Source of the DNA: Escherichia phage WPEC3
Strand: one strand, 5' to 3'
Sequence record: PV611058
DNA length: 64,000 nt
Below are positions 50,613-50,702 of this stretch, piece by piece. Every line of letters begins with the position of its first letter. Position 1 is the first letter of the stretch. A program made the translations under genes and the position numbers. A model generated the notes under the pieces. It saw only the letters and a list, made by a program, of their open reading frames with translations, had not been told where the DNA came from and did no database searches.

Positions 50613-50656
50613 TATTATCTCCTTAAAGATGTTATATTCGTTTTTCAGTATGATAT

Positions 50657-50664
50657 TATTTATA
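50657..50664 (-). promoter_or_regulatory. T4-type late promoter TATAAATA upstream of capsid gene
   Basis: Exact TATAAATA on minus strand ~45 nt upstream of ATG 50612, embedded in the extended motif cTATAAATAATATCATAc. Confidence 0.55.
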
Positions 50665-50702
50665 GAACTGAAAAATTTGATTATTAAAATGCTTTAAAAT
50701 GT

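Follow-up and report, generated by a model that had tools for sequence, protein, structure and literature searches.

Late transcription in bacteriophage T4 depends on the sigma factor gp55, the co-activator gp33 and the sliding clamp gp45. The T4 late promoter consists of an 8-bp box at -13 to -6, in which A is tolerated at -13, followed by an AT-rich downstream stretch and lacking conservation around -35; within the consensus of the T4 family, phage Aeh1 has an (a/g)C variant at -13/-12 (PMC2988020). At four T4 loci (genes e, soc, 49 and I-TevI) the late box lies in the 5' half of an RNA structure, and transcripts initiated at the promoter lack the 5' arm (PMC3014915). Among the very large phages of the Rak2-like group, MEME analysis has identified 35 sites of an ATAAATA late motif in phage CBB, the motif was also noted in GAP32, and homologues of gp33 and gp45 were reported as undetected in CBB (PMC5259590). 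The mechanism of activation in the group may hence differ from that of T4. The papers on RaK2 and PA5oct contain nothing usable on late promoters, and no mapped transcription start sites were found in the literature for any phage of the Rak2-like group, so that promoter activity and the position of +1 are inferred in what follows, as is the gp55 dependence of both promoters.

The DNA analysed here (the window) is a 64,000-nt stretch of Escherichia phage WPEC3 (PV611058). An initial annotation had drawn attention to an intergenic element of about 55 nt, repeated upstream of the capsid gene and of an acidic protein gene, and had read it as a phage-specific extended late promoter or regulatory box. 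The repeat very probably represents two matched late promoters of the T4 type, both within the head-gene cluster of an Asteriusvirus. It does not define a new extended promoter class, and its conserved, functional part is best read as the promoter box together with the start region. One item may be new, namely a covarying stem around the capsid promoter.

The repeated element and its gene neighbourhood

Sequence comparison places the window in Asteriusvirus (121Q/PBECO4/Rak2-like jumbo phages, myoviruses). Escherichia phage vB_Ec-M-J is 99% identical to the region and 121Q and PBECO4 are about 90% identical, while recognisable homologues occur in Salmonella phage Munch, EJP2, CBB/GAP32 (Mimasvirus) and BF/fHe-Yen9-04 (Eneladusvirus), and further ones in XaC1, RaK2/K64-1 (Alcyoneusvirus), Vibrio phage 2.275.O and PA5oct. 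In the open reading frame (ORF) map, the minus strand carries all genes of the head-gene part of the window, in the local order portal, 76-aa ORF, acidic structural protein, prohead protease, scaffold-like protein and capsid (Table 1), which matches the order of T4 genes 20-67-68-21-22-23. The genes downstream of the two copies are those described initially, encoding the major capsid protein and a very acidic virion protein (pI 4.05, Asp+Glu 30%). The true start codon of the latter is at 53370 and not at 53382, its orthologues starting after GGAGGATATA. At the edge of the window, a partial ORF matches phrog_12791, 'sigma factor for late transcription' (E = 1e-108), and phrog_234 (E = 2.7e-17), with no Pfam match for the same partial ORF (63441-64000). 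This gp55-family gene lies beside homologues of SbcD and SbcC, the same synteny as the 55-47-46 arrangement of T4.

Table 1. Coordinates of the genes and of the observed or predicted signals in the window
Feature	Position	Strand	Basis or remark
Major capsid gene	49437-50612	minus	phrog_138, E = 6e-98
Capsid Shine-Dalgarno (SD), AAGGAG	50619..50624	minus	AGGAGA invariant in 13 orthologues
Spacer between scaffold-like and capsid genes, holding copy 1	50613..50702	minus	ORF map, PHROG hits
Stem right arm ACTGAAAAA	50641..50649	minus	+3 to +11 of the predicted capsid mRNA
Copy 1 box TATAAATA	50657..50664	minus	Exact match; predicted start A at 50651, 6th base after the box, within CATAC
Stem left arm TTTTTCAGT	50667..50675	minus	T-tract-CAGT; part of the shared AAATTTTTCAGT (50667-50678)
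Copy 1 upstream box TTTTAAAGCATTT	50687..50699	minus	Exact match, about -48 to -36
Scaffold-like gene	50703-51818	minus	ORF map, PHROG
Putative late promoter TATAAATA of the scaffold-like gene	51866..51873	minus	Only the octamer in common with copies 1 and 2
Box ACTAAATA upstream of the prohead protease gene	52528..52535	minus	Probable weak late promoter
Acidic virion structural protein gene	52537-53370	minus	phrog_15696
Spacer between small ORF and acidic gene, holding copy 2	53371..53470	minus	ORF map, PHROG
Copy 2 box ACTAAATA	53414..53421	minus	Predicted start A at 53408
Predicted intrinsic terminator of the small ORF	53426..53468	minus	A-run, stem TCGC..CTTTTTAAA / TTTAAAAA..GCGA, then AAATTTTT
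Small ORF at the gp67 position, 76 aa	53471-53701	minus	ORF map
Putative late promoter ATAAATA of the small ORF (gp67 position)	53766..53772	minus	
SbcC	60261-62408		Adjoins the SbcD/late sigma region
SbcD	62421-63470		Adjoins the late sigma gene
gp55-family late sigma gene, C-terminal part, continuing past the window edge	63441..64000	minus	PHROG profiles

Two further stretches of the window carry features of their own. Directly 3' of the capsid gene (49325-49393, minus strand) there is a strong terminator with a GC stem, AGGGACTCTTCGGAGTCCCT, followed by a T-run, after which a perfect sigma70 promoter (TTGACA-17-TATAAT, 12/12) precedes an HNH endonuclease gene at 48195-49292. T4 likewise has a homing endonuclease gene, segD, right after gene 23, and CBB and GAP32 have different genes at this position. 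Elsewhere, the match of the ORF at 33646-34983 to the large terminase profile phrog_36964 is limited to profile positions 447-890. Just upstream of this ORF are 278 nt (34984-35261) that are coding-like but have no long ORF, and beyond them an ORF at 35262-36125 (phrog_27915, function unassigned). The terminase gene may be split or interrupted, or the ORF call may be wrong.

The two repeated stretches are present where the initial annotation had placed them, and they read in the direction of the genes, on the minus strand. Copy 1 (50699-50647) lies upstream of the capsid gene and copy 2 (53456-53404) upstream of the acidic gene. Their alignment contains three common blocks in the same order, TTTTAAAGC[A/T]TTT, AAATTTTTCAGT and TAAATAATATCATACT, and in local BLAST 32 nt align at 90.6% identity, with no comparable match to the copies elsewhere in the window. 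Within the 64-kb window the 16-mer TAAATAATATCATACT is found exactly only at 50647-50662 and 53404-53419, the 12-mer AAATTTTTCAGT and the 13-mer TTTTAAAGCWTTT only within the two copies, and the shared composite only twice. The composite TTCAGT-N2-4-TAAATAATATCATAC matched a single IMG/VR contig, with two occurrences (348,532 bp, taken as the 121Q genome), and an 88-nt query taken from copy 1 gave two to four BLAST places per genome at E <= 10, the additional ones being weak. The likeness of the two copies is not a chance match. At full length it is seen in Asteriusvirus, to which the long similarity is largely specific, and RaK2 shows a weaker resemblance in the upstream part. The ~55-nt similarity is made up of the late box, the start region, a T-tract with CAGT(AC) that spans about -27 to -16, and an upstream box at about -48 to -36.

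The probable late-promoter box

The capsid copy had been said to contain an exact octamer, and it does so (TATAAATA), while copy 2 has ACTAAATA at the same place; in orthologues from other genera the copy 2 position is occupied by TATAAATA. Both copies fit the definition of the T4-type box, copy 2 by way of the -13/-12 variant. The related motif sites named at the outset are also real, namely GATAAATAATATCATAG at 37738, GATAAATAATATTAAG at 37801 and GATAAATATCATAAAG at 18719. The late-promoter reading was examined through the frequency of the motif in coding sequence, which is far below that in non-coding sequence, a result that favours a promoter: over the window, the density of ATAAATA is 2.06/kb in non-coding and 0.12/kb in coding DNA, a 17-fold difference. 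Non-coding DNA makes up 9% of the window and holds 12 of the 19 occurrences. Each of these 12 intergenic sites, three of which precede plus-strand genes, is directed at a start codon lying 13-110 nt downstream. The strict octamer TATAAATA occurs at four sites in the 64 kb versus 7.2 expected in shuffled sequence, as expected of a signal that is avoided elsewhere. The genes downstream of ATAAATA sites include those for the capsid, the scaffold and several virion structural proteins, and the sites most like the repeat (37738, 37801, 33643 and 18719) precede virion structural protein genes. The motif is in this way enriched in the sense orientation before virion genes and rare elsewhere, and the window itself encodes a sigma factor of the gp55 family. 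No conserved -35 element was detected in the window, where the late sites other than copies 1 and 2 share nothing upstream of the box.

In the mechanism proposed here, host RNA polymerase with the phage gp55-like sigma factor would recognise (T/A)(A/C)TAAATA at about -13 to -6 and would initiate transcription 6 nt past the box, on the A of CATAC. Such a start would give a capsid mRNA with an A-rich leader of ~39 nt, and the acidic protein mRNA would have a similar leader. The core motif is neither new nor confined to this phage, ATAAATA late promoters having already been predicted for CBB and GAP32 (PMC5259590).

Other promoter-like sequences in the window deserve mention in their own right. 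At 37715-39158 the tandem late boxes at 37738 and 37801 stand before a pair of neighbouring paralogous genes for virion proteins (37854-38453 and 38469-39158, both phrog_9326), whose plus-strand orientation is the reverse of that in most of the window. A perfect 16-bp inverted repeat at 1607-1680 (minus strand), AAAAAACTCCAAGATT ... AATCTTGGAGTTTTTT followed by TATT, has a 25-nt loop that holds GATAAATA, and would be a terminator enclosing a late-promoter-like box, unless the arrangement is coincidental. Numerous spacers ahead of non-structural genes (9292-9329, 15761-15806, 22168-22222, 27015-27070, 32154-32308 and 41230-41333) carry an extended -10 sequence, TG(C/A)TATAAT. It represents a second class of promoter, probably the one described as early or middle in CBB and GAP32.

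Upstream halves, start region and history of the copies

The two copies resemble each other upstream of the box, where the window's other late promoters do not resemble either of them. The idea of an extension beyond the octamer stands in part: the bases of the start region recur at other structural-gene promoters, but the upstream flanks are absent from the other late promoters of the window. The further idea, that the whole ~55 nt is a single promoter or regulatory box, is contradicted by the folds of the upstream halves. In copy 2 this half is a terminator hairpin, predicted to be the intrinsic terminator of the preceding gene, in which the shared TTTTAAAGCTTTT box (53444-53456) forms the tip (TTTTAAAGCTTTTAAAA in the fold) and the shared T-tract forms the T-tail. 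A hairpin followed by a U-run is found at this position in 13 of 13 lineages, including Vibrio 2.275.O and PA5oct, with folding energies of -6.8 to -20.8 kcal/mol in folds of the individual sequences and a U-run in each. The stems are unrelated between lineages (UCGC/GCGA, UCCGUUUU/AAAACGGA, GUGCCAUUUU/AAAAUGGUAU, CCAGCUU/AAGCUGG and GGGGCA/UGCCCC), and in phage Munch a terminator is annotated at the same place. The upstream half of copy 2 accordingly combines the features of a rho-independent terminator, that is a stem-loop after the stop codon, a U-run and conservation of the structure. A simple terminator scanner missed the copy 2 site, the stem of which is AT-rich; RNAalifold on the MAFFT alignment, which was out of structural register, returned no structure, and the structure described is that of the per-sequence folds.

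The counterpart in copy 1 is unstructured, which also speaks against a single box. No folded structure was obtained for the copy 1 upstream segment in five of six lineages (zero energy), XaC1 giving a weak hairpin. Its spacing also differs in other genera, the upstream box being closer to the promoter box by about 13 nt in Munch, EJP2 and CBB, and this shift implies that it is not a spacing-critical promoter element.

An alternative explanation for the shared flanks (the T-tract-CAGTAC, TTTTAAAGC or both) is that they are the binding site of a phage or host regulator that boosts or times both promoters. CAGTAC stands immediately before the late box in RaK2, A4 and L028, and the arms of the stem around the capsid promoter (Table 1) correspond to the two halves of the palindrome TTCAGTACTGAA. 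In addition, the 50-kb early region of vB_Ec-M-J contains 15 copies of TTTTCAGTA versus ~1 by a rough composition-based hand estimate, often as TTCAGTACTGAA beside sigma70-like promoters, although this enrichment of the module may reflect duplicated promoter cassettes. However, the T-tract-CAGTAC module is missing at the other late promoters in the window, copy 2 has a single half-site only and uses its T-tract as the tail of the predicted terminator, and the spacing of 21 to 24 nt between the arms of copy 1 is awkward for a dimer. A regulator site common to both copies is accordingly unlikely. Viral contigs were also scanned for TTTTCAGTACTGAA and TTTTCTGTACAGAA, with co-variation between a genome-wide operator and the capsid-promoter arms in mind; the matches listed were unrelated contigs.

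The sequence TTTTCAGTA is of interest apart from the repeat. It is usually found as TTTTCAGTACT, the 15 occurrences just mentioned lying in the first 50 kb of the near-identical phage (OQ718158.1 1-50000; for example at 1070, 3675, 5534, 10464, 13040, 14129 and 17397) and others in the window at 12869 and 21018, and it forms part of a repeated cassette of ~100 nt beside sigma70-like TTGCAA-N16/17-TATAAT with an A/T-rich upstream stretch. The recurrence of T-tract-CAGTAC near early promoters could mean that it has a function of its own. In several genera AGTACT is also found immediately ahead of the SD of the scaffold gene.

The start region, in contrast with the upstream flanks, recurs outside the pair. 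In both copies the A of CATAC lies six nt after the box, and ATAT-CATA/TATA after the box recurs at several structural-gene promoters, with the predicted start 6 nt past the box. As read from the site list, YATA is present at the +1 offset in 8 of the 14 late sites of the window, and all 13 orthologues of the capsid promoter, which come from six groups, keep ATAAATAA and the ATA of CATAC unchanged. It is plausible from these sequences that a YATA start region is a general feature of the late promoters of this phage. The working consensus NATAAATA(A/T) + N4 + YATA should help in annotating transcription units of Rak2-like phages. Within each genome, the start regions of the two copies are more alike than either is to the other late promoters, the shared form being ATATCATACT in Asteriusvirus, AT[A/G]ACATACT in Munch and [A/G]AGTTATATAAA in the Vibrio phage. 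Another reading takes the conserved ATATCATACT chiefly for an extended -10 promoter in the antisense direction (AGTATGATATTAT on the plus strand, TGnTATTAT), directed against the upstream head genes. In its favour, the antisense of ATATCATAC reads as an extended -10-like TGATATTAT, a consensus scan returned ATTACA-16-TATTAT with TG at 53389-53416 on the plus strand, and a TG-N-TATTAT-like sequence is retained in copy 1 of Munch, EJP2 and XaC1. The reading is nevertheless very improbable: sigma70-like matches in the region are below those in shuffled sequence (7 vs 12.4) with copy 1 unflagged, the hexamer decays to TTTTAT, CATTAT or GATTAT in CBB and several copy 2 orthologues, the reverse complement of any AT-rich late box resembles a -10 element, and the orientation and placement of the ATAAATA sites fit sense promoters.

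At short distances the promoter-bearing spacers are conserved above synonymous sites, with the copy 1 spacer 98.9% identical to that of 121Q and 93.5% to that of A4, and the copy 2 spacer 94.1% and 89.4%, respectively, against 82.9% and 84.4% for the third codon positions of the capsid gene. About 30 genomes share an 88-nt stretch of copy 1 at 100% identity, and these same genomes differ by ~10% across the 4.4 kb around it. The two copies also share lineage-specific bases, A4 having AATTTTTTCAGTAC in both and the window AAATTTTTCAGT in both, and the Vibrio phage having TATAAATA[A/G]AGTTATATAAA in both; copy 1 of the window lineage has a copy 2-like ATATCAT where A4, Munch and EJP2 have ATAACAT. 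These shared bases are few and hint at short-patch gene conversion, with which they fit without proving it. The long similarity is best read as the result of shared ancestry or of short-patch gene conversion between terminator-plus-promoter cassettes 2.7 kb apart, and the two copies appear to be kept alike by recombination. More generally, long intergenic repeats are not always single signals: the one described here would be a fusion of terminator, promoter and start region.

The predicted stem around the capsid promoter and comparison with known systems

At copy 1, T-tract-CAGT is complementary to ACTGAAAAA, so that the promoter box sits in a 17-nt loop. Enclosing stems of 8-11 bp are found in Asteriusvirus, Munch-like phages, EJP2, the CBB clade and RaK2 (per-sequence shuffle frequencies 0.001-0.06) and are weak in XaC1-like phages, and the inter-arm distance ranges from 21 to 24 nt among lineages. 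No enclosing stem was found at copy 2, at the scaffold promoter or at 11 of the 12 other late sites in the window. As the MAFFT alignment of copy 1 orthologues misplaced the left arm, the pair table was anchored on the central C.G pair. In this table, six sequences have A.T at position -1 and six have T.A, none of them breaking the pair, and the XaC1 clade has T.A instead of C.G at position 0. At two further positions only T.G or G.T is seen, both being wobble pairs when read on the sense strand. The capsid promoter of Vibrio phage 2.275.O is contained in a 14-bp hairpin, the stem of which is unrelated and includes two sense-strand G.U pairs; its 7-nt loop is exactly AUAAAUA (z = -3.2). This evidence favours a nucleic-acid stem, probably in the sense RNA, over an operator with two half-sites. 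However, the covariation consists of few independent events, and the T5/A5 portions of the stem could be kept for other reasons, one as a terminator-like tail and the other as part of an A-rich leader.

With the predicted start placed at the base of the 3' arm, the stem could form only in transcripts that read through from the scaffold gene. G.U pairs that are compatible with the sense strand only suggest an RNA structure formed in such read-through transcripts alone. Selection for a capsid late promoter placed in a hairpin loop across the Rak2-like group, with unrelated stems in distant members, is a tentative proposal that is less likely than not. If true, the stem could mark read-through capsid mRNA, or cause it to be processed, differently from promoter-initiated mRNA. 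Alternatively, a DNA stem could help to open the strongest late promoter, the relative CBB being reported to lack a recognisable gp33. Rfam 15 had no match in 49000-54500 at E <= 1. Two other leaders of the head-gene cluster contain conserved hairpins just past the late box, that of the scaffold gene (51819-51884, minus strand; ATATTTGTA...TACAGATAT, z = -2.5) and that of the small ORF (53702-53774, minus strand; AATGAGGG...CCCTCATT, z = -3.7), and structured leaders seem to be common in this cluster.

An RNA leader switch of the type of T4 genes e, soc, 49 and I-TevI, in which the ribosome-binding site is masked in read-through RNA and promoter-initiated RNA is translated, has a documented precedent (PMC3014915). 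The core of the capsid promoter lies inside the stem, with the predicted start at the foot of its 3' arm, and the minimum-energy fold of Asteriusvirus pairs UUUUAAAG with CUUUAAGG at the SD. However, the right arm is paired only in read-through RNA and just the first 10 nt of the leader differ, and there was no difference in computed SD accessibility between the long read-through and the short promoter-initiated RNA in 8 of 8 lineages (SD-AUG unpaired probability 0.40-0.58). A hairpin masking the ribosome-binding site was rejected on this ground. The outer pairing at the SD is predicted in Asteriusvirus only, and the upstream genes are themselves late, which leaves a block of translation without an obvious need. 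Moreover, the absence of the enclosing stem at copy 2 means that a leader switch cannot explain the sequence common to both copies, and such a switch is scarcely credible here.

The reading of the repeat as a pair of late promoters is closest to the T4 system. T4 late promoters have the same 8-bp AT-rich box at ~-13 to -6, variable in its first position and placed before virion genes, a general -35 element is absent there as here, and in both phages the gp55-family sigma gene lies beside homologues of genes 47 and 46. Upstream of T4 genes 19 and 20, hairpins abut TATAAATA, the same layout of terminator and then box as in copy 2. The differences are equally clear. T4 uses the TATAAATA box, whereas the consensus here is NATAAATA(A/T), with exact TATAAATA found only four times in 64 kb. 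The T4 gene 23 promoter is located inside gene 22 and has no enclosing stem, unlike the capsid promoter of the window, and T4 head promoters lack long mutual similarity, whereas the two head promoters described here share about 30-55 nt. The layout of the capsid copy, with the promoter within a stem, is like that of T4 e, soc, 49 and I-TevI; in those genes, however, the 3' arm covers the SD or AUG, while the capsid stem covers the first ~10 nt of the leader. The late promoters predicted for CBB and GAP32 share the motif, the phage group and the placement before structural genes, and both copies have orthologues in CBB and GAP32 that contain the box. The accessible text of PMC5259590 describes the heptamer and an A/T-rich downstream region only (MEME), without the likeness of the capsid and core promoters, the start-region motif, the overlap with a terminator or the enclosing stem. 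The comparison supports T4-style late promoters for the head genes of this family of very large coliphages.
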